Source: Patescibacteria group bacterium
Lineage (GTDB): Bacteria; Patescibacteriota; CPR2; UBA1875
NCBI GenBank assembly: GCA_041737595.1
Contig: JBGSRK010000005.1
Location: 1,610 to 65,609, forward strand
DNA length: 64,000 nucleotides
Direction of reading: 5' to 3'
Shown here piece after piece: positions 4,060-19,022 of this stretch. The translations under genes and the position numbers were made by a program. The notes below the pieces were generated by a model, which worked only from the letters and a program-made list of their open reading frames with translations, was not told the origin of the DNA and did not search any database. How positions within the stretch are numbered: position 1 is the stretch's first letter; each line of letters begins with the position of its first letter.

Positions 4060-4755
4060 ATGTACGAAATAAAGGTAGAAAAATTTGAAGGACCACTTGA
4101 TCTTCTATTAGAACTAATAGTAGATGAAAAACTTGATATTACAGAAGTTTCTCTATCTGCTATAACTGATAAATATTTAGCCGAAGTGTCTGGGCTTGAT
4201 CCAAAAACTCACGATGTTGCTGAATTTTTAGTTATAGCTGCACGTCTTATATATTTAAAATCTAAGGCAATATTACCAACTATTGAAACGCCAGAAGAAG
4301 AGGCAGAAATAGAAGACCTTAAAGCAAAATTGGAAATATATAAAAAGTATAAAGACGCTGCAAAAGAATTTGGGAACATATTAAATAAAAATCAACGATC
4401 ATTCCCGGCAAAAACTCCAAAAAAGATAATAAATACTTTTACTGCACCAAAAGGTATCGAACTTAAAGATATGTGGAGTATTTTTCAAAGATTACTAAAA
4501 GATATGCCTGAAGAGTTAAAGAGAGAACAAGTTGAATTACCTTCAGAGAAGATTACGGTAGAAGATAAACTAGCAGATCTTGAATTAATTTTTAAAGCGA
4601 AGAAAAAACATACTTTTTCTTCGCTACTTAAAAAATCAAAATCCAAGCTAGACGCAATCATTACCTTTTTAGCAATATTAGAACTAGTTAAATGTAAAAA
4701 AATTAGAGTTGCCCAAACATCAAATTTTAAAGATATTGGATTGGAGATTTTATGA
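4060..4755 (+). CDS. scpA: Segregation and condensation protein A
   Basis: MYEIKVEKFEGPLDLLLELI N-terminus typical of ScpA; RBS GGGGGA. Confidence 0.85.
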   Translation: MYEIKVEKFEGPLDLLLELIVDEKLDITEVSLSAITDKYLAEVSGLDPKTHDVAEFLVIAARLIYLKSKAILPTIETPEEEAEIEDLKAKLEIYKKYKDAAKEFGNILNKNQRSFPAKTPKKIINTFTAPKGIELKDMWSIFQRLLKDMPEELKREQVELPSEKITVEDKLADLELIFKAKKKHTFSSLLKKSKSKLDAIITFLAILELVKCKKIRVAQTSNFKDIGLEIL

Positions 4756-5303
4756 AGAAAGATAATGAAAAAATAAAGAGTTTTATAGAATCAATATTAC
4801 TTGTAGCAGAAAAACCAGTTTCAATAAAAGAATTATCTTCTTCTATCGGCCAAATGAATAGTGAGATTCAAAAAGCACTTACTGAATTAATTAATGAATA
4901 TAAAAATAAAGGTATTAAGATTATTAAAAAAGGGGAGTACTTTTCACTTGTTACAGACCCAGAAAATTCTGAAATTGTTGGAAAATTTTTAAATGAAGAG
5001 TTAAGACATGACCTTTCAGACGCGGCGATTGAAACCCTTTCAGTAATAACATACAAACAACCCGTTACCAGAGTCGAGATTGAAGATATTAGAGGAGTTC
5101 AATCTGATCAGCTTTTAAGAAACTTAATGATAAGAGGTCTAATAACAGAAGTTGGGCGAAAAGAAACTCCCGGAAGACCAATCCTTTATGGGACTACTAT
5201 GGAATTTATGCAATATTTCGGCTTTTCTAATGAATCTCAAATCCCAGAATTTAAAGAACCAGTTTCTGAGGAGCTGTTTAATAATATAGACACTATTACT
5301 TAA
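4752..5303 (+). CDS. scpB: Segregation and condensation protein B
   Basis: Overlaps the scpA stop by 4 nt; ScpB-like winged-helix protein in the conserved scpAB arrangement. Confidence 0.8.
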   Translation: MKKDNEKIKSFIESILLVAEKPVSIKELSSSIGQMNSEIQKALTELINEYKNKGIKIIKKGEYFSLVTDPENSEIVGKFLNEELRHDLSDAAIETLSVITYKQPVTRVEIEDIRGVQSDQLLRNLMIRGLITEVGRKETPGRPILYGTTMEFMQYFGFSNESQIPEFKEPVSEELFNNIDTIT

Positions 5304-9692: not shown

Positions 9693-10112
9693 TCCCATCA
9701 ATAAACCGTGTCATACACTTGATCCGTTTCATTTTTAGACGGACGTTATTGTTGGGAGAGTCCCTCCGGCAAGCGAGTCGGCCTCAGGAGGGTGATGAGG
9801 TTTATTTGACCCAGCTTGCCAAAAGGGACACTTCCAGCAAATTTATTGATTTAATTTTCAAATTTTTTACCACATTTTATAAATCCGAGCGCGGTTACAA
9901 CCATTTTTTGGTCGACGTAGAAGTTTATCACATAAATTATTATTTGTCAACACTTTTTTTATGAATGTTGATAACCCCTCATAATAGATAATCTCTGACT
10001 AAATATAATAATATATTTTCACACTACATTACTACGTAGTAGCGTAGTGTCTAGGATATTAAACATAAAGACTATATTAATATATTTAAACTTAAGTGAT
10101 ATAATATTGCTT

Positions 10113-11174
10113 ATGAATAAAAAGTATTTAGCAAGTTTTGGTGCATTTAAAAAAATTAATTCAGATATATGGCATAAAATAGTAGGTTATTTCCCAAATT
10201 TAGAAATAGCTTGGAACGCTAGTGAAAATGATTATATTAAGGCTGGACTAAAAGATAAACAAGCTAAAGAATTAAGAGATCATATTAAAACATTTGATAA
10301 TGAAAAATATATAAATCTTTTAAATAAAAATAATGTAAATATTATCTCGATAATGGATCCCGAATATCCTAAGCTCTTAAAAGAAATTCATACCCCACCA
10401 TTTATTATTTATATTAAGGGTAAATTAGATATTAAAGATGAAGGGGCTATTGCGATAGTGGGGTCAAGAAAGGCGACCGATTATGGACGAAGGGTTACCA
10501 ATGAACTAGCAGGAGAGTTAGCGAGTGCTGGTATTACTATAATTTCTGGTCTTGCTTTAGGGCTTGATACTCAAGCACACACCGCAGCTTTAAAAAAAGG
10601 TGGGAGAACAATTGCTGTACTTGCAAATGGTCTTGATATGATATACCCAACATCTAACACTAATTTAGCAAATGAAATAATTAATAATGGAGCAATTATA
10701 TCTGAACAACCACTTGGTATGCCTGCTTTAAAACCAAATTTCCCAGCTAGAAATCGAATTATATCTGGTCTTTCTCAAGGAGTGATAATTACAGAAGCGG
10801 GGGATAAATCTGGGACACTGCATACTGCAAATTTCGCTCTTGAACAAAATAGACAAGTATATGCAGTACCTGGCCCAATATATAATCCATTAGCACATGG
10901 GCCAAACACTTTAATAAAATTAGGTGCTAAATTAGTAACGTCTTCTTCTGATATATTAGAAGATTTTGGGATAGAAAAAGAACTTATAATTTCTAAACCA
11001 GAAAATAGTGATGAAAAATTAATTTTTGATCTATTAATAAATGGAGAAAAACACATAGATGAAATAACAAATATTTCAAAAAGATCTTCACAGGAAATTT
11101 CAAGAATTATTTCGTTGATGGAAATAAATGGGAAGCTAATCCATCTTGGCGGAATGATTTATGATTTAAAATAA
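10113..11174 (+). CDS. dprA: DNA processing protein A (SMF family, Rossmann-fold DNA-binding)
   Basis: GSRKATDYG...GLALGLDTQAHTAAL...NRIISGLS motifs typical of DprA. The track ORF begins at an upstream GTG (10047) inside a palindrome. The ATG at 10113 lies 6 nt after a TATAAT box, so it is a possible leaderless start. Confidence 0.8.
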   Translation: MNKKYLASFGAFKKINSDIWHKIVGYFPNLEIAWNASENDYIKAGLKDKQAKELRDHIKTFDNEKYINLLNKNNVNIISIMDPEYPKLLKEIHTPPFIIYIKGKLDIKDEGAIAIVGSRKATDYGRRVTNELAGELASAGITIISGLALGLDTQAHTAALKKGGRTIAVLANGLDMIYPTSNTNLANEIINNGAIISEQPLGMPALKPNFPARNRIISGLSQGVIITEAGDKSGTLHTANFALEQNRQVYAVPGPIYNPLAHGPNTLIKLGAKLVTSSSDILEDFGIEKELIISKPENSDEKLIFDLLINGEKHIDEITNISKRSSQEISRIISLMEINGKLIHLGGMIYDLK

Positions 11175-11241
11175 TTGAAATATCTATAAATATTAATAAA
11201 ATATGTTTAAATAGATAAAGTAGTGTATAATCACAAGTCGT

Positions 11242-13197
11242 ATGAAATTAGTAATTGTAGAAAGTCCTGCAAAGGCAAAAACAATTGAAGGTTACCTAGG
11301 ACCTGGTTATAAGGTGCTTGCATCTTATGGTCATCTTCGTGATCTTCCAAAATCCAAATTAGGTGTTAATGAAGAAACTTTTGAGCCAGAATACATTATT
11401 CCTGTAAAAAGTCGTAAAAATGTAACTGCTATAAAAAAGGAAGCCGAAAAAGCAGAACTAGTTATTCTCGCTACTGATGAAGATAGAGAAGGGGAAGCAA
11501 TATCTTGGCATATAATTTTTGCAGCAAATATTCCTAAAGGTAAATACCAAAGAATTACATTTAATGAAATAACTAAAGAAGCAATTAAAGAGGCTGTTGC
11601 AAATCCTAGAGAAATTAATCAAAATCTTGTTGACGCTCAACAAGGCAGAAGAGTGCTCGATAGGATAGTTGGGTATAAACTTAGCCCACTATTATGGAAA
11701 AAAATAAGAAGAGGTCTTTCTGCGGGGCGCGTACAATCAGTTGCCGTAAGACTTATTGTTGAACGTGAAAGAGAAATACAGGCATTTATTCCAGAAGAAT
11801 ATTGGGAAATTTTGGCAGTATTGAATAAAGATGATAATTTTGAAGCCAAGCTTATAAAAAAGAATGATAAAAATATAGAGATTAAAAATAAGTCAGAATC
11901 TGATTTAATTTTAAAAGAGATCAAAGATAAAGATTTTATAGTCGAAAAAGTTGATGTCAAAGAGATGAAAAAGTCTCCTGGTGCCCCTTTTACAACCTCA
12001 ACTCTACAACAAGAAGCTTCAAGAAAACTCCGTTTCTCAGCTAAAAAAACAATGATGCTAGCCCAGAAGTTATATGAGGGGATAAATGTCCCTAGTGAGG
12101 GCTCTGTGGGCCTTATAACCTATATGAGGACAGATTCAACAAATCTTTCAGAACAAGCCGTCACCCAAGCTCGTAAATTAATTGATGAAAAATATGGGAA
12201 GAAATATGTTTCTCAAATAATGAGGATATGGAAAAAGAAAAAAGGAGCTCAAGAAGCTCATGAAGCAATTAGACCAACTGGATTTTATCGTTTACCCGAA
12301 GCCTTATCAGATATATTGGAACCAGACATGTTAAAGCTTTATGAACTTATTTGGAGAAGAGCCATGGCCTCACAGATGTCTGACGAGGTTTTGGATTTAA
12401 TGGGCGTCGATATAAAAGTTTCTGACTATACTTTTCGATCAAATGGTAAAAAAGTTAAATTTGATGGTTTTTCAATAGTTTATAATAATCTCGCAGGAGA
12501 TAAGGATATTATATTACCATCACTTAATGTCGGTGATAAATGTGATGTCATAGAAATAAATCCATTACAAAAATTTACAAAACCAAAGGCCAGATATACT
12601 GAAGCTTCACTTGTTAAAGTATTAGAAGAAAATGGTATTGGTCGACCTTCAACGTATGCCCCAACAATTTCCACTATAAAAGATAGGGGATATGTCCGCG
12701 TTGAAAATAGATTTTTAATTCCCGAAGAAATATCATTTATAGTTACTGATGGTTTAGTTAAATTTTTCCCTGATGTTATTGATGTTGATTTTACTGCAAA
12801 AATGGAGAATGATCTTGATAAAGTAGCAGAGGGAAAAATTAAATGGAAAAATCCTATTAAAGAATTTTATGGACCGTTTATTTTTGAGGTTGCAAAAGCA
12901 GAAGAAGCTTGGGATTACGAAAAACCAAAAGATGAACCTACCGACGAAATTTGTGAAAAATGTAAATCTCAAATGGTAATAAAAATTGGTAGATATGGTA
13001 AATTTATGGCTTGCTCAAATTTCCCTGATTGTAAAAACACAAAGAGTATGGCCGAATCTCTTGGACCATGTCCAAAATGTAAAGATGGAAATATTATAGC
13101 CAGAAAAACAAAAAGAGGTAGAACATTCTTCGGTTGTTCAAATTATCCTAAGTGCGACTGGGCTACCTGGAAACTTGAAGATCTAGATAAAAATTGA
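11242..13197 (+). CDS. topA: DNA topoisomerase I with C-terminal zinc ribbons
   Basis: Toprim N-terminus (MKLVIVESPAKAKTI...DEDREGE), active-site region, C-terminal CxxC-x-CxxC fingers. Confidence 0.9.
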   Translation: MKLVIVESPAKAKTIEGYLGPGYKVLASYGHLRDLPKSKLGVNEETFEPEYIIPVKSRKNVTAIKKEAEKAELVILATDEDREGEAISWHIIFAANIPKGKYQRITFNEITKEAIKEAVANPREINQNLVDAQQGRRVLDRIVGYKLSPLLWKKIRRGLSAGRVQSVAVRLIVEREREIQAFIPEEYWEILAVLNKDDNFEAKLIKKNDKNIEIKNKSESDLILKEIKDKDFIVEKVDVKEMKKSPGAPFTTSTLQQEASRKLRFSAKKTMMLAQKLYEGINVPSEGSVGLITYMRTDSTNLSEQAVTQARKLIDEKYGKKYVSQIMRIWKKKKGAQEAHEAIRPTGFYRLPEALSDILEPDMLKLYELIWRRAMASQMSDEVLDLMGVDIKVSDYTFRSNGKKVKFDGFSIVYNNLAGDKDIILPSLNVGDKCDVIEINPLQKFTKPKARYTEASLVKVLEENGIGRPSTYAPTISTIKDRGYVRVENRFLIPEEISFIVTDGLVKFFPDVIDVDFTAKMENDLDKVAEGKIKWKNPIKEFYGPFIFEVAKAEEAWDYEKPKDEPTDEICEKCKSQMVIKIGRYGKFMACSNFPDCKNTKSMAESLGPCPKCKDGNIIARKTKRGRTFFGCSNYPKCDWATWKLEDLDKN

Positions 13198-13245
13198 CCT
13201 ACCTATTAATATTTAGGTATAATCTAATCATAATATAGAGGCAAT

Positions 13246-13647
13246 ATGGCAATACAATCAAAATGTAAAAAATGCAGTAATGATTTTTTAATAATCACTA
13301 AAGAAGAAGAGTATTATAAAGAAAAAGATTTACCATTACCTAAATTGTGCCCTGAGTGTAGATATGAAAGAAGGATATCTTTACGAAATAAAAAGAAACT
13401 TATTGGGTATAATTGTGATAGTTGTGGCAATGATATAATTACGGCAGTTGAACCAGAAGAAGGTTTACAAATTTTTTGTAAAACCTGTTATCAAAAATTT
13501 TTGCAGGAAAATGATTGCATACTCGGATATTCTGATGCTGCAAAGGCTGAAATGGGAGGTGATACAAATAAAAATGAATCTCCATCAACCCCTAATATAA
13601 ATGAAAAAACTGATAATGGGTCAGCAAAAGATCCTGTGAGTTGGTAA
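13246..13647 (+). CDS. Tandem zinc-ribbon protein (FmdB-like CxxC...CPxC pairs), unknown function
   Basis: Two ribbons: CKKCSNDF...CPEC and CDSCGNDI...CKTC. RBS AGAGG upstream; acidic/Ser-rich tail. Confidence 0.55.
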   Translation: MAIQSKCKKCSNDFLIITKEEEYYKEKDLPLPKLCPECRYERRISLRNKKKLIGYNCDSCGNDIITAVEPEEGLQIFCKTCYQKFLQENDCILGYSDAAKAEMGGDTNKNESPSTPNINEKTDNGSAKDPVSW

Positions 13648-14540
13648 TGATAGATGAAAAGATAAAAGAACTTATTAAGAAGTTCCCAATTATATCAACA
13701 GTTCAAAGAAGCTGTGATAATTGTGATTGGGGGCACCATGTTTATAGTTCTCAAAATTGTTATCAAATTTTTGATGCATCTCAATTAGATGAATGTATGT
13801 ATGTAAAAGATTCTTTTAAGGAATCAAAATGTATTGATACAACCTGGAACGCTTTTTGTGAAAGGTGCCTTGAAACAAGTGATTCTTTAGAATCAAATAA
13901 CTGTGTTTATTCTCAATATATAGGCCAATGTTACAATATGTGGTATTCGTTTAATTGTGGTTCATGCCATGACTGTTTTGGTTGTTATAATCTATCGAAT
14001 AAAGAGTATTGTATATTTAATGTTCAATATACAGAATCTGAATTTAATGAAAAAATTAAAGAATTAAAAAAACAAGACCCTGAAGAAATTATCAAAAAAG
14101 TTAAAAAGGAAGTTGAACTAAAATTTCCTAAGATGCATTCTAATTTTAGAGATAACCAAAATTCAGAATATGTAGATTATGTTTACAGATCAAAAGACGC
14201 ATATTACTGCTTTGACTGTAATGATATAGATAGCTGTTTCTATTGCACAACAATTAATGAATCAAGTGACTGTGTTGATTGTTCGTTTATATTTAGGACT
14301 CAACATTCCACTAACTCTACAGATTTAAATGAATGTTACAACTGTTATGAGTCAAGAGAGTGTGATAGATGTACGAATTCATATTTTTTATATAGCTGTC
14401 AGGATTGTACAGATTGTTTTGGATGTGTGAATCTTGCGCATAAAGAATACTGTATTTTCAATGTTCAATATACTAAAGAAGAGTATCCAAAAAAACTTAA
14501 TGAAGTAAAAAAACAGTACGGTATAACCAATCAAAGCTAG
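13641..14540 (+). CDS. Cys-rich protein with internal tandem duplication, unknown function
   Basis: About 36 Cys. A repeated block CHDCFGCYNLSNKEYCIFNVQYTESEFNEKIKELKKQ aligns with CTDCFGCVNLAHKEYCIFNVQYTKEEYPKKLNEVKKQ. Start overlaps the upstream gene by 7 nt. Confidence 0.55.
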   Translation: MVMIDEKIKELIKKFPIISTVQRSCDNCDWGHHVYSSQNCYQIFDASQLDECMYVKDSFKESKCIDTTWNAFCERCLETSDSLESNNCVYSQYIGQCYNMWYSFNCGSCHDCFGCYNLSNKEYCIFNVQYTESEFNEKIKELKKQDPEEIIKKVKKEVELKFPKMHSNFRDNQNSEYVDYVYRSKDAYYCFDCNDIDSCFYCTTINESSDCVDCSFIFRTQHSTNSTDLNECYNCYESRECDRCTNSYFLYSCQDCTDCFGCVNLAHKEYCIFNVQYTKEEYPKKLNEVKKQYGITNQS

Positions 14541-14553
14541 CAAAATTAAATAA

Positions 14554-14582
14554 TTGACGAATACTTAAGTTTCTGCTATAAT
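14554..14582 (+). promoter_or_regulatory. Consensus sigma70-type promoter (TTGACG-N17-TATAAT), likely leaderless transcript
   Basis: -35 at 14554-14559, 17-nt spacer, -10 at 14577-14582. The ATG at 14592 is only 9 nt downstream with no RBS. Confidence 0.55.
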
Positions 14583-14591
14583 TGTATTGTT

Positions 14592-15632
14592 ATGACAGAA
14601 AAAGTTGCATTATTTGATGATTCAAACACACAAGTTGGCGAATGGGAGAAACTTGCCGTACTTAGTGTTACAGATTGTCCAAAAATTAAAAAAGACAGAG
14701 AAAGAAAAATTATTTTTGACCGCTTTGGTATTGGTAAAAATATTAAAACTTTAAATGCTATTGGGAATCAATATGGGGTCACTCGAGAAAGAATAAGACA
14801 GATTGTTAATAATGTACTAAAAAAGATAAAAAAGTTTTGTAAAAATGATAAAGTAAATAATACAATTAAATCAATTGAAGAATTTGTAAATAAATCTGGC
14901 GGATATATTTCAAATATTGATCTTTATTCAAAATATACTAAAGATTCAAAAAGAGAACAAAATGCTATAAGATTTATTGCTACACTATCAGAAAACTTAG
15001 ACATAGTTAAAGAATCTAATTATTTAAAAGAGGGTCTTGTAGATAAAAAAGTTAAAGAAGTAAAATTAAAGAAAATTGTAGTTGAATCAATTACTTTATT
15101 AAAAAAACAAGGGAAAACATTAAGATCAAAAGAAATAGCAGAAACTATTAATTATCCCGAAGATATAACAAGAGCTGCTCTTTCTGGTGCAAAAGCTATT
15201 ATGAAAGGTGATGATAATAAATGGGGGCTAAAAACATGGCCACACGTAAATCCTAAAAGTATAAAAGATAAATCTATGTATATTTTAAAAAGATATTCAA
15301 AACCAATTCATTATACTGAACTTACAATTAAAATAAGTGAACTTTCTAATAAAAAAGTTACAAAGCAATCAGTTCATAATGAATTAATCAAAAATTCTGA
15401 ATTTGTACTCGTTGGTAGGGGAATATACGCTCTTTCTGAATGGGGGTATACCCCCGGGGTTGTTGAAGAAGTAATTGTCCAAGTTTTAATTGAAGCTGGA
15501 AAACCTATGCATAAAAATGAAATTATTGATTTGGTTCTTGAACGTAGAATAGTAAAGGCAAGTACAGTTATTTTAAATCTTCAAAAACCAAGATTTAAAA
15601 GAGTTAAAAAAGCAGTATATACTTTAAATTAA
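14592..15632 (+). CDS. DNA-binding protein: sigma-70 region-4-like HTH plus two HARE-HTH-like winged helices
   Basis: N-terminal FDRFGIGKNIKTLNAIGNQYGVTRERIRQIVNNVLKKIKK resembles sigma70 region 4.2 (VTRERIRQIE). C-terminal VLVGRGIYALSEWGY and NKWGLKTW resemble HARE-HTH. Confidence 0.55.
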   Translation: MTEKVALFDDSNTQVGEWEKLAVLSVTDCPKIKKDRERKIIFDRFGIGKNIKTLNAIGNQYGVTRERIRQIVNNVLKKIKKFCKNDKVNNTIKSIEEFVNKSGGYISNIDLYSKYTKDSKREQNAIRFIATLSENLDIVKESNYLKEGLVDKKVKEVKLKKIVVESITLLKKQGKTLRSKEIAETINYPEDITRAALSGAKAIMKGDDNKWGLKTWPHVNPKSIKDKSMYILKRYSKPIHYTELTIKISELSNKKVTKQSVHNELIKNSEFVLVGRGIYALSEWGYTPGVVEEVIVQVLIEAGKPMHKNEIIDLVLERRIVKASTVILNLQKPRFKRVKKAVYTLN

Positions 15633-15639
15633 GGGGAAT

Positions 15640-18600
15640 ATGTACGACATTTTAACAGAAATTTTTAAGGGAGTTGTATCTGTGATACTTTATTTTTGGT
15701 GGCTTATAGCCGCTTTTTTATTTTATATTGCTTGGCAGAATAAAAGAAAAACTTCTTTTGTATCTAAAACAGAACATATTATTATGGAGGTTAAGATTAC
15801 CAAAACTAATGATAAAGATCCAACTGCAGCAGAAATGATGTTTGCTACCTTACATGGTATATTAAAGCCAAGGACAGAACTACTTAAAAAGGGAGAGATA
15901 CAAGAACACATTAGTTTTGAAATTATTTCAGATACTACATCTATTCGTTTTTATGTTTGGACACCAAAACACCTAAAGGATTTTGTTGAAGGACAAATTT
16001 ATGCTCAGTATCCATCTGCCGAAATCCGCGAAGTTGAAGATTATACAAAAAGTATAGATCCTTCTGATAAAAATATTAATGTTACTTCAGCCGATATTGT
16101 ATTAACAAAAGACGATTATCTTCCTATTAAATCTTTTAATAATTTTAAAGTAGACCCACTTGCTGGAATTACTGGGGTTTTATCTAAACTAGATGAAAAA
16201 GGTGAACAAATTTGGATTCAAATACTTGCAAGGCCAGTTTCTGATGAATGGAAAAGAAGAGGGCAAAACTGGGCTGCAAAGAAAAAAGGTGAAGCCGTTT
16301 CGGGGTTTGGTTTTACGGAATCTTTTGGTAAGTGGATTATAGAGGCCCCTCTAAAATTAATAACTGATTTAATTAAAGTAGCAATAGTTGGGGGACTTGA
16401 CCCAGATAGTGATTCAAAAACCAAATTATCACCAGACACAGAAAGTATGATTTCTGCTATACAGGAAAAATCAGAAAAATTAGCATTTAAAGTGAGAATC
16501 AGAGCTATATATTTAAGTCCAAATTCAGTTAAATCAAGTGAAAGAATGCAAGCTGTTTTTGGAGCTTTCAAGCAATTTAATACAACAAATTTAAATGGAT
16601 TTAAAGGTAAGCATATAGCAAATGATAGATCTTATCTTAAAGAATATAATAATAGATTATTTTTAAAAGGTGGGTTTCATTTAAATATAGAAGAACTTGC
16701 ATCTATTTATCATCTACCACATACCTCAGTCGAAACACCCAATATTAAATGGACTTCCTCAAAAGTTGGCGAACCACCAACTAATTTACCAATTGAAGAA
16801 ACTACCCCAATAGAAGATTTAGCACTTTTTGCTGAAACAAATTTTAGAAGTCATAAGGAAGTTTTTGGTATAAAAAGAGATGACAGACGTAGACATATGT
16901 ATATTATTGGTAAATCTGGTATGGGGAAAACTAAACTTCTAGAAAATTTAATTAATAACGATATTAAAAGAGGAGAAGGGGTTGCGCTTATGGACCCTCA
17001 TGGTGATTATTATGCAGATGTTATTAATAAAATCCCTGAGGAAAGAATAAAGGATGTAGTGCTTTTTGATCCTTCTGATGTAAGTAATCCGATAGCTTTT
17101 AATCCAATGGAAGTAATTGATGAAAATTTTAAAGTACAGATAGCATCTGGTATTGTTGGCACTTTCAAAAAAATATTTGGGACATCTTGGGGCCCTCGAC
17201 TTGAATATATTTTAAATTATACTGTCCTTGCTCTTTTGGATACTCCTGATACAACTATTCTAGGTATTGTGCGGGTTTTAACAGATAAAAATTATAGAAA
17301 AATTATTGTAGATAATATTCAAGATCCAGTTGTAAAAAAATTCTGGACTACTGAGTTTGCTTCATATAATGAAAAATTCGCTACAGAGGCTATAGCACCT
17401 ATCTTAAATAAGGTTGGACAATTTGTTGCAAATTCATTAATTCGAAATGTTATTGGTCAACCTAAATCTAGTTTTAATTTAAGAGAACTAATGGATAATA
17501 AAAAAATAATACTTATTAATCTTTCTACTGGTAAGGTAGGGGAGACTAATGCTGCACTTTTAGGTTCTTTAATGATTACTGCTATTCAGCTTGCTGCTAT
17601 GAGTAGAGCAGATATTGCAGAAGAAAATCGGGCTGACTATTATCTATATGTTGATGAGTTCCAAAATTTCGCAACTGAATCATTTAAAACTATTCTTTCA
17701 GAGGCAAGAAAATATCGACTCAATCTTGTTATGGCTAATCAATATATTGCGCAGATGGAGGATACGGGTGTTAAGGACGCAATTTTTGGTAATGTAGGTA
17801 CAATTATTACTTTTAGGGTTGGGGCACAAGACGCTGATGAGCTCGTAAAGGAATTTAGCCCACCATTTGAAGCTCAAGATTTAATTAATCTTGCAAGACA
17901 AAACATCTATATCCGTATGACTATTGATGGGCAATCAGAAACTGCATTCTCTGGAGTAACACTTACTGTATCCCCAGACGTAACTGGAAACTTTGATAAA
18001 ATTATTGAACACTCAAGAAAAATGTATACCCGTCCAAGAGAGGAAGTAGAAGCTGAGGTAGCTGCAAAATCAGGTATGCAAATTAATGCCAAGCCATCTA
18101 CCGCACCAGGGATGGAAAACGCTGTAGTTGAAATAGTAACATCAGATACTAAAATTACTGCAACAGAAGAAGGAGATGTTTTTGAAGCACCATTAGTAAA
18201 AAAAGTTAATAATAAATCAAAGAACACAAGCCCTTCAAAAGAAAATTTAGTAAACATTATAAAAGAAAATACTGCTCACTTAGAAAAACCAAAAAAAGAT
18301 AAAGATAAAGAAGAATTAAAATTAGAACAAAAAAATGATAAAAATATTATTAAAGGGGATAAAGAGGGTAATATTAAGAGTGAAATAAAGAAAGATAATT
18401 TTCTTATTAAAGATAAAATAGATAAAGAAACCTTATCTGAAATATTAAAATCTGTAGTCAAACCTACAGAAGATTTAAATAATAATAATTCAATAAAAAT
18501 AGATGCAAAAAATGATGAGACAAATAGGGGAGACGAAAAAAAAGAAAATGTTATAAAAAATAATATTATTAATAATACCCCCAAAGATAAAACCGAGAAC

Positions 18601-18753
18601 CATGTTTCCCCTACTTCAAAAAATGAAAAAATAATTACTTCGGATAATTTTAAAGATATAAAAACTATACATCCAAATGAAACCGTAAAAGTATTAGAAC
18701 GAACTGGCGAACCCCAAAAAATTAATGAAGGTGACATAATTAAATTTAAATAA
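15640..18753 (+). CDS. Membrane-anchored FtsK/HerA/TraG-VirD4-superfamily P-loop ATPase with long Lys/Glu/Asn-rich C-terminal tail
   Basis: N-terminal TM (ILYFWWLIAAFLFYIAW); Walker A HMYIIGKSGMGKTKLLENL; Walker B YLYVDEFQNF. About 240 aa of low-complexity K/E/N-rich tail. RBS GGGGAA, adjacent to the upstream gene. Confidence 0.65.
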   Translation: MYDILTEIFKGVVSVILYFWWLIAAFLFYIAWQNKRKTSFVSKTEHIIMEVKITKTNDKDPTAAEMMFATLHGILKPRTELLKKGEIQEHISFEIISDTTSIRFYVWTPKHLKDFVEGQIYAQYPSAEIREVEDYTKSIDPSDKNINVTSADIVLTKDDYLPIKSFNNFKVDPLAGITGVLSKLDEKGEQIWIQILARPVSDEWKRRGQNWAAKKKGEAVSGFGFTESFGKWIIEAPLKLITDLIKVAIVGGLDPDSDSKTKLSPDTESMISAIQEKSEKLAFKVRIRAIYLSPNSVKSSERMQAVFGAFKQFNTTNLNGFKGKHIANDRSYLKEYNNRLFLKGGFHLNIEELASIYHLPHTSVETPNIKWTSSKVGEPPTNLPIEETTPIEDLALFAETNFRSHKEVFGIKRDDRRRHMYIIGKSGMGKTKLLENLINNDIKRGEGVALMDPHGDYYADVINKIPEERIKDVVLFDPSDVSNPIAFNPMEVIDENFKVQIASGIVGTFKKIFGTSWGPRLEYILNYTVLALLDTPDTTILGIVRVLTDKNYRKIIVDNIQDPVVKKFWTTEFASYNEKFATEAIAPILNKVGQFVANSLIRNVIGQPKSSFNLRELMDNKKIILINLSTGKVGETNAALLGSLMITAIQLAAMSRADIAEENRADYYLYVDEFQNFATESFKTILSEARKYRLNLVMANQYIAQMEDTGVKDAIFGNVGTIITFRVGAQDADELVKEFSPPFEAQDLINLARQNIYIRMTIDGQSETAFSGVTLTVSPDVTGNFDKIIEHSRKMYTRPREEVEAEVAAKSGMQINAKPSTAPGMENAVVEIVTSDTKITATEEGDVFEAPLVKKVNNKSKNTSPSKENLVNIIKENTAHLEKPKKDKDKEELKLEQKNDKNIIKGDKEGNIKSEIKKDNFLIKDKIDKETLSEILKSVVKPTEDLNNNNSIKIDAKNDETNRGDEKKENVIKNNIINNTPKDKTENHVSPTSKNEKIITSDNFKDIKTIHPNETVKVLERTGEPQKINEGDIIKFK

Positions 18754-18790
18754 AATAATATTATTTATTAATAACTAGTTAATTTTAGAT

Positions 18791-18814
18791 ACAGCCTAAG
18801 AGGGCTGTTTTTTA
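18791..18814 (+). terminator. Rho-independent terminator
   Basis: ACAGCC-TAAGAG-GGCTGT hairpin followed by TTTTTTA. Confidence 0.7.
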
Positions 18815-19022
18815 TTAATTAAATATTATATAACATAAATAGATTAAGAATGGTAAGGGAGAAAGAGCAGAGTATAAATATATATAAATAATTAATTATT
18901 AAAATTTTGGCTTTACAATGGGAGATACTAGCAGTCACATAAACTAATAAATAGTTAATGTCGCACAATATATCTTATGCGACTTTCTTTATATGGAGTT
19001 AATGAGTAAAAGAGTATGGGCT

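Follow-up and report, generated by a model that had tools for sequence, protein, structure and literature searches.

A sigma-region-4/winged-helix protein and a coupling-protein-type ATPase form a conserved two-gene operon in Patescibacteria

Genes and signals at the locus

The window analysed here, a 64-kb stretch of DNA from an ultra-small patescibacterial cell taken as a whole, carries four plus-strand open reading frames, g1 to g4, at the positions that a first-pass annotation had given them. These genes and the features in and around them are listed below.

13194..13223, plus strand: promoter of g1, sigma-70-type TTGACC-18-TATAAT, 11 of 12 consensus positions
13246..13647, plus strand: g1, 133 aa (from ORF, Pfam and CxxC count)
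13641..14540, plus strand: g2, 299 aa, no Pfam family
14554..14582, plus strand: promoter of g3-g4, TTGACG-17-extended -10 TGcTATAAT
14592..15632, plus strand: g3, 346 aa, pI 9.8
14694..14834, plus strand: sigma70 region 4.1-4.2 HTH, g3 residues 35-81 (PF04545; alignment with RpoD 519-566)
14847..15626, plus strand: four tandem winged helices, g3 residues 86-345 (86-151, 156-213, 224-281, 291-345)
15630..15642, plus strand: g3-g4 junction, consisting of the g3 stop TAA, GGGGAAT and the g4 ATG
15640..18753, plus strand: g4, 1037 aa, membrane-anchored ATPase of the coupling-protein (T4CP) family
15661..15735, plus strand: transmembrane helix, g4 residues 8-32 (hydropathy scan; AF2 helix 2-43)
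15757..16839, plus strand: DUF8128 (PF26449) domain, g4 residues ~40-400, VirB4/TrwK N-terminal-domain-like fold
16868..18009, plus strand: TrwB/VirD4-type P-loop ATPase, g4 residues ~410-790, including the TraG-D_C region
16909-16932, plus strand: Walker A of g4, GKSGMGKT (coordinates checked)
17644-17658, plus strand: Walker B of g4, LYVDE (coordinates checked)
18040..18750, plus strand: K/E/N-rich low-complexity tail, g4 residues 801-1037, length and sequence not conserved
18791..18818, plus strand: terminator-like hairpin and T-run, TTTTTTATTA; hairpin at 18791-18808, 7 bp with 4 G-C pairs
18958..18985, plus strand: dif-like 28-bp imperfect palindrome, ATGTCGCACAA-TATATC-TTATGCGACTT, adjacent to the operon and outside it

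The first-pass annotation had read g1 to g4 as a single unit with a consensus, apparently leaderless promoter before g3 and a clean terminator at its end. Both signals are present. Only 9 nt separate the promoter of g3-g4 from the g3 ATG, so the transcript is predicted to be leaderless or nearly so, and an intrinsic-terminator-like hairpin followed by a T-run ends the g3-g4 operon. The single unit did not survive, because the second strong promoter before g1 points to two transcription units, g1-g2 and g3-g4. Within the first, the start of g2 overlaps the end of g1 by 7 nt. Within the second, the tight coupling proposed earlier is reflected in a gap of 7 nt with a Shine-Dalgarno-like GGGG between stop and ATG, a sequence arrangement consistent with translational coupling. 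A TTGACx-17-TATAAT element 8-14 nt before the ATG recurs in 11 of 72 related loci, and others have a leader of about 20-40 nt. Among the neighbouring genes are scpAB, topA and those of the dcw cluster. As the first reading had also stated, the 64-kb window has no relaxase or T4SS gene beside g3-g4; an oriT is likewise missing nearby, and the large ORFs in the rest of the window include neither a VirB4 nor a relaxase.

The two Cys-rich proteins matched their initial descriptions in part. Paired zinc fingers with four CxxC motifs are indeed encoded by g1, but they are treble-clef fingers (Pfam zf_Tbcl, E 6.8e-9, and zf_Tbcl_2) and not generic tandem ribbons. The internal duplication of g2 was confirmed, its halves being 38% identical over 132 aa (E 2e-29), while its Cys count is 29 and not about 36. 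The g2 family is small and patescibacterial, with 368 relatives.

If all four genes made up one module, g1 and g2 might be substrates, effectors or adaptors of g4. The window's own clade keeps all four genes in the order g1-g2-g3-g4, and many g2 relatives share contigs with relatives of g3 and g4. Moreover, fused g1+g2-like proteins of 572-618 aa adjoin 4 of 57 loci in a distant clade, right after or between the ATPase genes, and a second, short T4CP-like ATPase often comes after them. We nevertheless regard such a module as very unlikely, since it is in the lineage of the window alone (L002, L083/L084) that g1 and g2 accompany g3-g4; they are missing from 79 of 80 related species loci and from 53 of the 57 distant loci, and they stand under their own promoter. 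Tandem arrays of the g2 family also occur away from g3-g4, so that 4 of 57 may be within chance for multi-copy genomes, although the recurrence of the fused form may reflect a loose association with the pair. The neighbourhood comparison thus did not uphold the four genes as a unit. Only g3-g4 is deeply conserved, and g1 and g2 are lineage-specific passengers in a variable slot between topA and g3.

Domain composition of g3 and g4

The g3 product is a basic protein with a bona fide sigma-factor region 4 and four winged helices, two of them of the RNAP-delta/HARE-HTH type. Pfam assigned it Sigma70_r4 (PF04545, 38.3 bits against a cut-off of 24.1) and, in two stretches, HARE-HTH (PF05066, 33.9 against 25.9). 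Residues 35-81 align with region 4 of RpoD, and the family profile matched RpoD/SigA region 4 at E ~3e-15. In its recognition helix, GVTRERIRQI, g3 agrees with primary sigma factors, VTRERIRQI being identical to RpoD, and T64, R65, E66, R67, R69 and Q70 were invariant among 58 homologues. In the AF2 model (pLDDT 90.7) four winged helices follow the sigma-4 HTH, and Foldseek matched them to the WH1-4 array of SelB; the last two are the HARE-HTH domains and the most conserved part of the protein (TVHNELI..RFVL.GRG.YAL.EWGY). The first-pass annotation had therefore recognised both module types correctly but had counted two winged helices where there are four.

Despite these modules, g3 is not a sigma factor, because it lacks sigma regions 1-3. 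Pfam gave no Sigma70_r2 match in g3, and NCBIfam sigma models produced C-terminal matches of about 55 residues only, far below their cut-offs. Nor is it the RNAP delta subunit (RpoE), with which its C-terminal winged helices have the HARE-HTH signature in common. The delta model TIGR04567 scored 15.7 against a cut-off of 42, and whereas delta carries an acidic tail, g3 has a pI of 9.8 and ends in a winged helix.

To g4, Pfam assigned TrwB_AAD_bind (PF10412, 56.1 bits against 20.5, residues 413-734); DUF87 was also above its cut-off, as was TraG-D_C, the TraM-recognition region (PF12696, 28.3 bits against 22, residues 668-731). By sequence and profile search, the only relatives of g4 in the PDB were the T4CPs TrwB (E 8.6e-6) and DotL. 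The transmembrane anchor, both Walker motifs and the K/E/N-rich tail of about 240 aa described earlier were all located, and the Walker motifs are invariant in homologues. A single hydrophobic segment (residues ~8-32) precedes NKRK, which under the positive-inside rule would place the remainder of g4 in the cytoplasm. Between anchor and motor, the N-domain has a fold like that of the VirB4/TrwK N-terminal domain; its PF26449 annotation was precomputed on g4 relatives.

The initial assignment of g4 to the TraG/VirD4/FtsK/HerA type stood for the T4CPs (TraG/VirD4/TrwB) and fell for FtsK. FtsK/SpoIIIE was rejected for want of any FtsK_SpoIIIE, alpha or gamma Pfam match and because g4 has one transmembrane helix rather than four. 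VirB4 was likewise rejected, as Pfam gave no AAA_10 or CagE_TrbE_VirB match and BLASTP against a plasmid VirB4 returned E 1.5; compared with VirB4/TrwK, the ATPase domain of g4 is instead closest to VirD4-type proteins. NCBIfam TraD models also stayed below their cut-offs on g4 (TIGR03743, 44.7 against 366; TIGR03754, 41.4 against 647; TIGR02759, 22.2 against 521).

The nearest full-length counterparts are on plasmids. Residues 40-770 of g4 are collinear with a DUF87 protein of a B. subtilis plasmid (E 3e-54, 25% identity), which is the first gene product of a conjugation operon in the order DUF87, Replic_Relax relaxase, Tcp-like genes and AAA_10 VirB4; coverage of the g4 query is at least 80% in 43 plasmid records. 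Bacillus plasmid DUF87/DUF8128 proteins, and also those of Streptomyces and haloarchaea, share with g4 the collinear N-domain and ATPase and a low-complexity C-terminal tail. Unlike g4, they adjoin a Replic_Relax relaxase and a Tcp/VirB4 transfer operon, and one of them (L081) has no obvious N-terminal transmembrane helix. Relaxase or T4SS (Mpf) genes alongside are a criterion for a T4CP, and g4 has none beside it in the 64-kb window. Its end-to-end alignment with proteins encoded next to relaxase and T4SS genes nonetheless places it in a T4CP lineage that is now fixed on the chromosome and goes back to the coupling ATPase of monoderm-type conjugation systems. Like TrwB (R388), TraD (F) and PcfC (pCF10), it is a membrane-anchored TrwB-type ATPase with a TraG-D_C region and a variable C-tail. 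Classical T4CPs have two transmembrane helices and g4 has one; g4 differs from them further in its extra VirB4-like N-domain and in having no oriT or relaxase.

Conservation and surroundings of the pair

In 77 of 80 related species genomes, g3 and g4 share a strand and g3 comes immediately before g4, with a gap of at most 100 nt in 51 of these 77 loci. The distant clade keeps the arrangement in altered form. There, g3 is about 30% identical and g4 is split into two genes, the DUF8128 domain being encoded separately, yet the order g3, N-domain gene, ATPase gene was found in 56 of 57 loci, and secDF rather than topA lies directly upstream in the loci that we read. Thus g3 and g4 are adjacent and co-oriented across deeply diverged Patescibacteria despite the changed flanks and the split of g4. 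The conserved unit is a two-gene g3-g4 operon, not four genes, and the proposed pairing of a sigma-r4/HARE-HTH gene with the ATPase is amply borne out. At the three exceptional loci of the 80 (L067, L069, L078), an unrelated protein of about 190 aa and a paralogous ATPase replace g3 upstream of g4. On plasmids we found no full-length g3 homologue and no g3-like neighbour beside the DUF87/DUF8128 proteins, and viral contigs yielded no relatives.

This distribution bears on whether the pair could be a conflict or addiction module, in which g3 senses foreign or modified DNA and controls g4, or neutralises a toxic g4; in the latter case, g3 would be essential only while g4 is present. An Abditibacteriota plasmid does encode a protein with sigma-4 and winged-helix domains next to an Eco57I/MmeI-like methylase and DUF4007, region 4 of g3 matches region 4 of the MzaA defence protein, and 6mA sensing is connected with winged-helix and HARE-HTH domains in the titles and abstracts of papers. 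We still consider such a module highly improbable. Both genes are 'core family', near-universal and vertically syntenic, whereas defence islands are patchy; PADLOC matched no system-specific defence model, giving only generic hits at the level of the P-loop (mad8, HerA) and of region 4 (MzaA); and relatives were absent from viral contigs.

Downstream of g4, the dif-like site lies in the convergent spacer between g4 and ftsQ, where GC skew and gene orientation flip. Across 45 loci compared, it is conserved and found 28-530 nt from g4. It could serve as a terminus marker for these genomes. This position, the GC-skew sign change in the window and the neighbouring scpAB, topA and dcw genes could suggest that g3-g4 is an FtsK-like machine for segregation or dimer resolution, working at the dif site and the division septum. 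The pair shares with FtsK/SpoIIIE the FtsK/HerA/TrwB ATPase superfamily and a membrane anchor, and winged helices like those of FtsK gamma would be supplied in trans by g3. Even the dispensability of the g4 orthologue (see below) would fit, the FtsK motor being dispensable in E. coli. We give this reading very little credence. S. epibionticum has a separate, complete and essential FtsK (4TM, alpha, motor, gamma) and a XerC-like recombinase, the FtsK_SpoIIIE family has no match in g4, and g3-g4 loci of the distant clade lack the dif-like motif, so that the adjacency of g4 and dif is one lineage's synteny.

Genetic evidence and possible function

Published Tn-seq data for S. epibionticum (Southlakia epibionticum) cover the two syntenic genes. 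SEML1_0294, a 349-aa protein with Sigma70_r4 and HARE-HTH, was scored ES/ES/ES, whereas SEML1_0293 (PF10412, PF12696, PF01935; 921 aa) was scored NE/NE/NE; the paralogue SEML1_0142 is essential (PMC10633639 Table S1). From synteny and shared domain content, we infer that SEML1_0294 and SEML1_0293 are the orthologues of g3 and g4. With the g3 orthologue essential and the g4 orthologue dispensable, g3 must have a role independent of g4 and cannot be its adaptor only.

Patescibacterial T4CP homologues as such are not new. In the accessible text of Quinonero-Coronel et al. 2025 (PMC12102498), 5,713 such proteins are counted in 2,918 of 3,035 genomes, most of them distant from virB4 and lacking a relaxase; only 148 of the 5,713 lie near virB4, and exaptation is considered possible by the authors. 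These orphan VirD4-like proteins are, as far as that text describes them, most likely of the same family as g4. It treats the T4CP homologue only as a CONJScan hit, and the sigma-4 partner, the VirB4-like N-domain, the split form and the two-paralogue pattern are not mentioned in it. Our literature search found no description of the g3 partner or of its linkage to g4. The first-pass view that no described system has this composition therefore holds for the partner and its linkage, but not for the orphan T4CPs, already catalogued in 2025, nor for the presumed orthologues, for which Tn-seq exists; what appears to be undescribed is the association of g4 with g3, its VirB4-like N-domain and its split into two genes.

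The Tn-seq pattern invites the view that g3 is for the most part an essential factor, either of general transcription or associated with RNAP. Its sigma-4 module would sit on the beta-flap or on -35 elements and its delta-like HARE-HTH domains on the polymerase, and g4 would be an operon mate with no common substrate. Both module types of g3 are known from RNAP subunits, and the HARE-HTH of RNAP delta binds polymerase rather than DNA. Databases call g3 relatives 'RNAP delta subunit' or 'sigma factor-like', and the absence of a full-length g3 homologue from plasmids fits as well. This explanation seems to us rather unlikely, because adjacency kept at about 30% identity, among other flanks and with a split g4, would be surprising if no functional link existed, and because the two genes are tightly spaced and apparently coupled in translation.

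We prefer, at a probability of roughly 0.45 and hence tentatively, to see g3-g4 as a functional two-gene operon in which g3 is an adaptor for the T4CP-derived g4 and has an additional g4-independent role. The sigma-4 helix of g3 may read -35-like TTGACA DNA, although docking on the RNAP beta-flap is also possible. Bound to DNA or RNAP, g3 would present a nucleoprotein substrate to a membrane-anchored g4 hexamer, which might feed a patescibacterial T4SS encoded elsewhere, by docking through its VirB4-like N-domain, or act alone. By analogy, the pair would parallel TraM-TraD, TrwA-TrwB and PcfF-PcfC, in which an adaptor sitting on the DNA hands the substrate over to the hexamer. TrwA, TraM and PcfF are of the ribbon-helix-helix type, whereas g3 has a sigma-4 and winged-helix fold and an essential orthologue; as plasmids hold no full-length g3 homologue, the likeness rests on function, not descent. 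The housekeeping role of g3 would probably be exerted at promoters or on RNAP, and g4 would be an accessory, substrate-specific coupling ATPase beside its essential paralogue. Counting against the adaptor reading are the missing relaxase, oriT and T4SS genes nearby, the three loci in which g3 is replaced, and the statement of Wang et al. that the T4SS of S. epibionticum (Se) has no recognisable coupling protein.

The adaptor might also serve a machine of another kind. T4CP homologues are reported for 96% of genomes and VirB4 for 80% in the text accessible to us, which argues that at least some of the former act without a T4SS. It is conceivable, though we think it unlikely, that g3-g4 is a T4SS-independent, near-universal patescibacterial machine in which g3, guided by its sigma-4 module and associated with RNAP or promoters, ties specific DNA, whether chromosomal or incoming, or else transcription complexes to the membrane-anchored g4. 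If so, a part of the conjugation apparatus would have been repurposed for host-dependent handling of DNA or nucleoprotein in episymbionts, and g4 would unite a VirD4-like motor and, for docking, a VirB4-like domain.

Much of the diversity of bacteria belongs to the Patescibacteria, and their T4SS, which has no recognised relaxase, is essential for epibiotic growth. That an essential sigma-4/winged-helix protein nearly always accompanies one of the two orphan T4CP paralogues, both ubiquitous, raises the questions of which molecules these ATPases recruit and whether DNA is among them. The g3-g4 pairing offers a genetically testable handle on both in S. epibionticum or N. lyticus. Furthermore, the VirB4-like N-domain of g4 and its natural split from the motor bear on the divergence of VirB4 and VirD4.

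Organization of the locus

Four ORFs, present exactly as the first-pass annotation had described them, lie between topA and ftsQ: the Cys-rich g1 and g2, the sigma-4/winged-helix protein g3, and the 1037-aa ATPase g4.

Features of the locus in the window (position, strand, description)
13194-13223, +, near-consensus promoter of g1, by sequence
13246-13647, +, g1, a zf_Tbcl and a zf_Tbcl_2 treble-clef finger, four CxxC
13641-14540, +, g2, 29 Cys, internal duplication of 38% identity over 132 aa (E 2e-29)
14554-14582, +, near-consensus promoter of g3, its last base 9 nt ahead of the g3 ATG
14592-15632, +, g3, Sigma70_r4 and HARE-HTH above Pfam cut-offs
15640-18753, +, g4, TrwB_AAD_bind, DUF87, and TraG-D_C, each above the Pfam cut-off
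18791-18818, +, hairpin and T-run at the end of the region, by sequence
18958-18985, +, dif-like 28-bp imperfect palindrome ATGTCGCACAA-TATATC-TTATGCGACTT in the g4/ftsQ convergent spacer

The spacer between g3 and g4 is 7 nt long and contains GGGG. Given the two promoters and the closing hairpin with its T-run, the genes therefore constitute two transcription units, g1-g2 and g3-g4. The internal duplication of g2 proved genuine, whereas the cysteines first put at about 36 actually number 29.

The window is core chromosome of a Patescibacteria (CPR) bacterium and low in GC (~0.28-0.35, about 0.40 at 54-58 kb). On the 5' side lie dacA, a histidine kinase and response regulator, scpA, scpB, a pseudouridine synthase, der, a GNAT gene, pth, dprA, and topA; on the 3' side, ftsQ, murG, ftsW, and the remaining division and cell-wall cluster genes occupy the opposite strand, as do, farther away, ribosomal-protein operons, secY, tuf, fusA, and rpoC. 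Among these neighbors, scpA, scpB, dprA, and topA (window 4060-5303 and 10047-13197) form a chromosome-maintenance cluster less than 15 kb upstream of g3-g4 and the dif-like site. That the locus is of mobile or viral origin was rejected in view of this core-chromosome synteny, the uniform GC of the window, and a search of IMG/VR contigs that found no relatives.

Persistent linkage of g3 to a coupling-protein-lineage ATPase

The g4 protein is a membrane-anchored ATPase of the type IV coupling protein (T4CP) lineage with intact catalytic motifs; its Walker motifs, single N-terminal transmembrane helix, and K/E/N-rich tail are all as first described. By sequence, the ATPase half is of the VirD4/TrwB type, and the only solved structures related to g4 are TrwB and DotL. 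Its relatives number more than 7,400, almost all in Patescibacteria, and have the N-terminal Pfam family PF26449 (DUF8128) in common according to precomputed assignments. An exact-sequence search of contigs for the window's own g4 gave no match. The fold of this N-domain matches VirB4, yet g4 was rejected as a VirB4 since its sequence is VirD4-like, and the ATPase half displayed no similarity to a plasmid VirB4.

When plasmids were searched with g4 by tblastn, 727 records matched, 43 with a query coverage of at least 80%; among the source organisms were Bacillus (358 records), Streptomyces, haloarchaea, and Sulfolobus. In two B. subtilis plasmids the g4 homologue is the first gene of a conjugation operon, in which DUF87 is followed by a Replic_Relax relaxase, Tcp-like transfer genes, and an AAA_10 VirB4. 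Because g4 is collinear with this plasmid protein (residues 40-770, E 3e-54), we assign it, on sequence grounds, to the coupling-protein lineage of monoderm-type conjugation systems. The context of g4 itself is that of a housekeeping chromosome, relaxase and T4SS (type IV secretion system) genes being absent nearby. This orphan setting agrees with a 2025 survey of 3,035 Patescibacteria genomes, which lists 5,713 VirD4-like homologues from 2,918 of the genomes, only 148 of these homologues being near virB4, and VirB4 itself in 2,417 genomes (PMC12102498).

A g4 alignment, used to scan a single genome of each species, yielded 80 related loci, mostly from Saccharimonadia but also from Howlettbacteria and Berkelbacteria. 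In 77 of the 80, a g3 homologue sits immediately upstream of g4 in the same orientation, and for 51 of these 77 the estimated gap is no more than 100 nt. Since the wider order is kept as well (pth, dprA, topA, a variable slot, g3, g4, and convergent ftsQ-murG-ftsW), adjacency within this set alone could reflect inherited gene order. To break this confound, we scanned metagenome contigs with the C-terminal region of the most remote g3 relatives (~30% identity). In this distant clade, a g4 homologue comes directly after g3 in 56 of the 57 loci with sufficient downstream sequence, and the loci read in detail have secD/secF rather than topA immediately upstream. Moreover, two neighboring genes consistently take the place of a single g4 in this clade (L087-L166), the first encoding the transmembrane helix and DUF8128 N-domain (~435-476 aa) and the second the ATPase (~580-690 aa). 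The split point is a PPxNLPxE linker equivalent to g4 residues ~378-390.

Example of a split g4
L088, 8480-9820 and 9892-11832

The operonic linkage of g3 and g4 is thus persistent, and because it survives both changed flanks and the split of g4, it provides strong evidence for a functional tie between the two. In the three exceptions (L067, L069, L078), the gene upstream of g4 encodes an unrelated protein of ~180-195 aa, and upstream of that gene in turn lies a paralogous ATPase gene with the same architecture. A Pfam scan of the L067 copy of this replacing protein returned no match; its sequence suggests a coiled-coil-like N-terminus ahead of a KYPVPxNY..SKSKLVxGD motif.

Related loci with paralogous DUF8128-T4CP ATPases in tandem
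L067, 6845-12988
L069, 6892-12619
L078, 6862-12787
L019, 5454-13180

Cys-rich genes and the dif-like site

Genes g1 and g2 accompany the pair in 1 of the 80 related loci. The window's own clade keeps the order topA, a ~300-aa ORF without a Pfam match, g1, g2, g3, g4. In four distant loci, the ATPase genes have genes for fused Cys-rich proteins (572-618 aa, 27-40 Cys) directly behind them or in between; these proteins carry a g1-like zf_Tbcl finger at the start, g2-like repeats, and a zf_Tbcl_2-like finger at the end. Often there follows a second, short T4CP-like ATPase (481-496 aa) that starts with '..KYAPPPPELP..' and lacks the N-domain.

Fused g1/g2-like proteins in distant loci
L118, 9827-13121
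L124, 9899-16399
L130, 12074-16376
L151, 5132-9255

A Pfam scan of g2 found no family. With 368 relatives, g2 belongs to a small, expanding Cys-rich family. On an 894-kb contig (L085, 6001-11347), a tandem array of five or more g2-family members (298-305 aa) has no g3-g4 nearby; the array is broken by a PIN-domain gene and adjoins pth, and that genome holds at least nine paralogues. Because the order is kept in the window's own clade, arrays exist without g3-g4, and fused forms appear in four distant loci, the association of g1/g2-like genes with T4CP loci is recurrent but facultative, and it may be within chance for multi-copy genomes. The initial observation was largely right, while its reading as a four-gene module holds only in part; that all four genes form one module whose substrates are the Cys-rich proteins appears improbable.

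The dif-like palindrome, in which 9 of 11 arm positions are complementary, has a single copy in the window, where none is expected by chance. The same motif in the same orientation lies 28-530 nt downstream of g4 in 45 of 45 compared loci, with a family consensus of about GTGTCGCACAA-TGTATA-TTTTGCGACAT, whose central hexamer is that of E. coli dif. The palindrome is probably the chromosome dimer-resolution site (dif). At ~18.8-19.0 kb, where cumulative skew peaks, gene orientation and GC skew change sign: all genes before this point are on the + strand with G>C, and all from 19 to 64 kb are on the - strand with C>G. The switch is consistent with a replication terminus and is confounded with coding-strand bias.

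Together with the dcw, scpAB, and topA neighbors, the site and the skew flip speak for g3-g4 as an FtsK-like dimer-resolution system. However, a relative, Southlakia epibionticum, has a separate, complete, and essential FtsK along with a XerC-like recombinase, and the g3-g4 loci of the distant clade lack the dif-like motif. For these reasons an FtsK substitute was dropped as the main reading, and we consider it very unlikely.

Essentiality of the likely g3 orthologue and a proposed partnership of g3 with g4

Residues 35-81 of g3 are a bona fide primary-sigma region 4 (family profile against SigA/RpoD region 4, E ~3e-15). The recognition helix VTRERIRQI is the same as in RpoD and invariant in 58 homologues; in known structures of sigma region 4 bound to -35 DNA, these are the residues that read TTGACA. 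Pfam and NCBIfam models detected no sigma region 2. In the AlphaFold model (pLDDT 90.7), region 4 precedes four tandem winged helices that resemble the SelB WH1-4 array, the third and fourth being HARE-HTH and the most conserved portion of this basic protein (pI 9.8). The family comprises about 499 clusters at 50% identity (E <= 1e-30), and among the 150 best matches listed nearly all are 320-400 aa long. No full-length homologues were found on plasmids; given this and an hhalign probability of 0.4% against the plasmid Replic_Relax protein, a reading of g3 as a diverged relaxase or relaxosome protein was rejected.

On an Abditibacteriota plasmid (AP024153.1; L086, 26-6403), a 568-aa protein annotated 'RpoD' has sigma region 4 mid-protein, and its C-terminus matches the winged helices of g3 at 34% identity. 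The genes behind it encode an N6-adenine methylase resembling Eco57I/MmeI, a DUF4007 protein, and a small AAA protein. A restriction/defence-like context thus also contains a related sigma-4 and winged-helix protein.

The syntenic locus of S. epibionticum ML1 has Tn-seq calls, and SEML1_0294 and SEML1_0293 are the likely orthologues of g3 and g4, judging from synteny and shared domain content. A Cas9 gene (SEML1_0291) interrupts this region just past the g4 orthologue.

Tn-seq calls in S. epibionticum ML1 (PMC10633639, Tables S1 and S2)
SEML1_0298, DprA: NE
SEML1_0296, topoisomerase I: ES
SEML1_0294, annotated 'RpoS', 349 aa, Sigma70_r4 and HARE-HTH: ES/ES/ES; 24 insertions in input, 1-2 after selection
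SEML1_0293, 921 aa, PF10412, PF12696, PF01935: NE/NE/NE; 82 insertions in input, then 87-120
SEML1_0142, T4CP-like paralogue: ES/ES/ES

Of the pair, the g3 orthologue alone is essential; its domains parse as a tri-helical and three winged domains. Normalised reads of SEML1_0293 nonetheless fell from 5,817 to 1,372 across passages, and SEML1_0294, 0293, and 0142 are all flagged as core, Patescibacteria-enriched families (PMC10633639). The tandem T4CP paralogues of the related loci match this two-paralogue pattern of one essential and one dispensable copy. The authors also describe an essential S. epibionticum T4SS without a recognisable coupling protein or relaxase (PMC10633639). That g3 is an essential transcription factor merely sharing an operon with g4 seems unlikely to us.

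We tentatively favor, with a probability of about 0.45, a joint reading in which g3 is an adaptor for an accessory coupling ATPase, g4, and has an additional essential role. The g3 protein would bind -35-like DNA and/or RNAP and hand a nucleoprotein substrate to a g4 hexamer, in parallel with TraM, TrwA, and PcfF, which present substrate to TraD, TrwB, and PcfC. The ATPase would either dock via its VirB4-like N-domain on a T4SS encoded elsewhere or work alone, and g3 would also be essential at promoters or on RNAP. We regard an addiction or defence module as highly improbable, and a defence system was rejected as PADLOC gave generic matches only.

The ATPase family, its orphan status, and the fitness data are already published. 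In the literature we found no description of the near-obligate pairing of g4 with a sigma-4 and four-winged-helix protein, of the VirB4-like fold of DUF8128, or of the fused and split g4 forms and the paralogue pattern, and nothing relevant on DUF8128/PF26449 or on HARE-HTH combined with Patescibacteria. Genetics already established for Saccharibacteria would allow the g3-g4 pairing to be tested directly.
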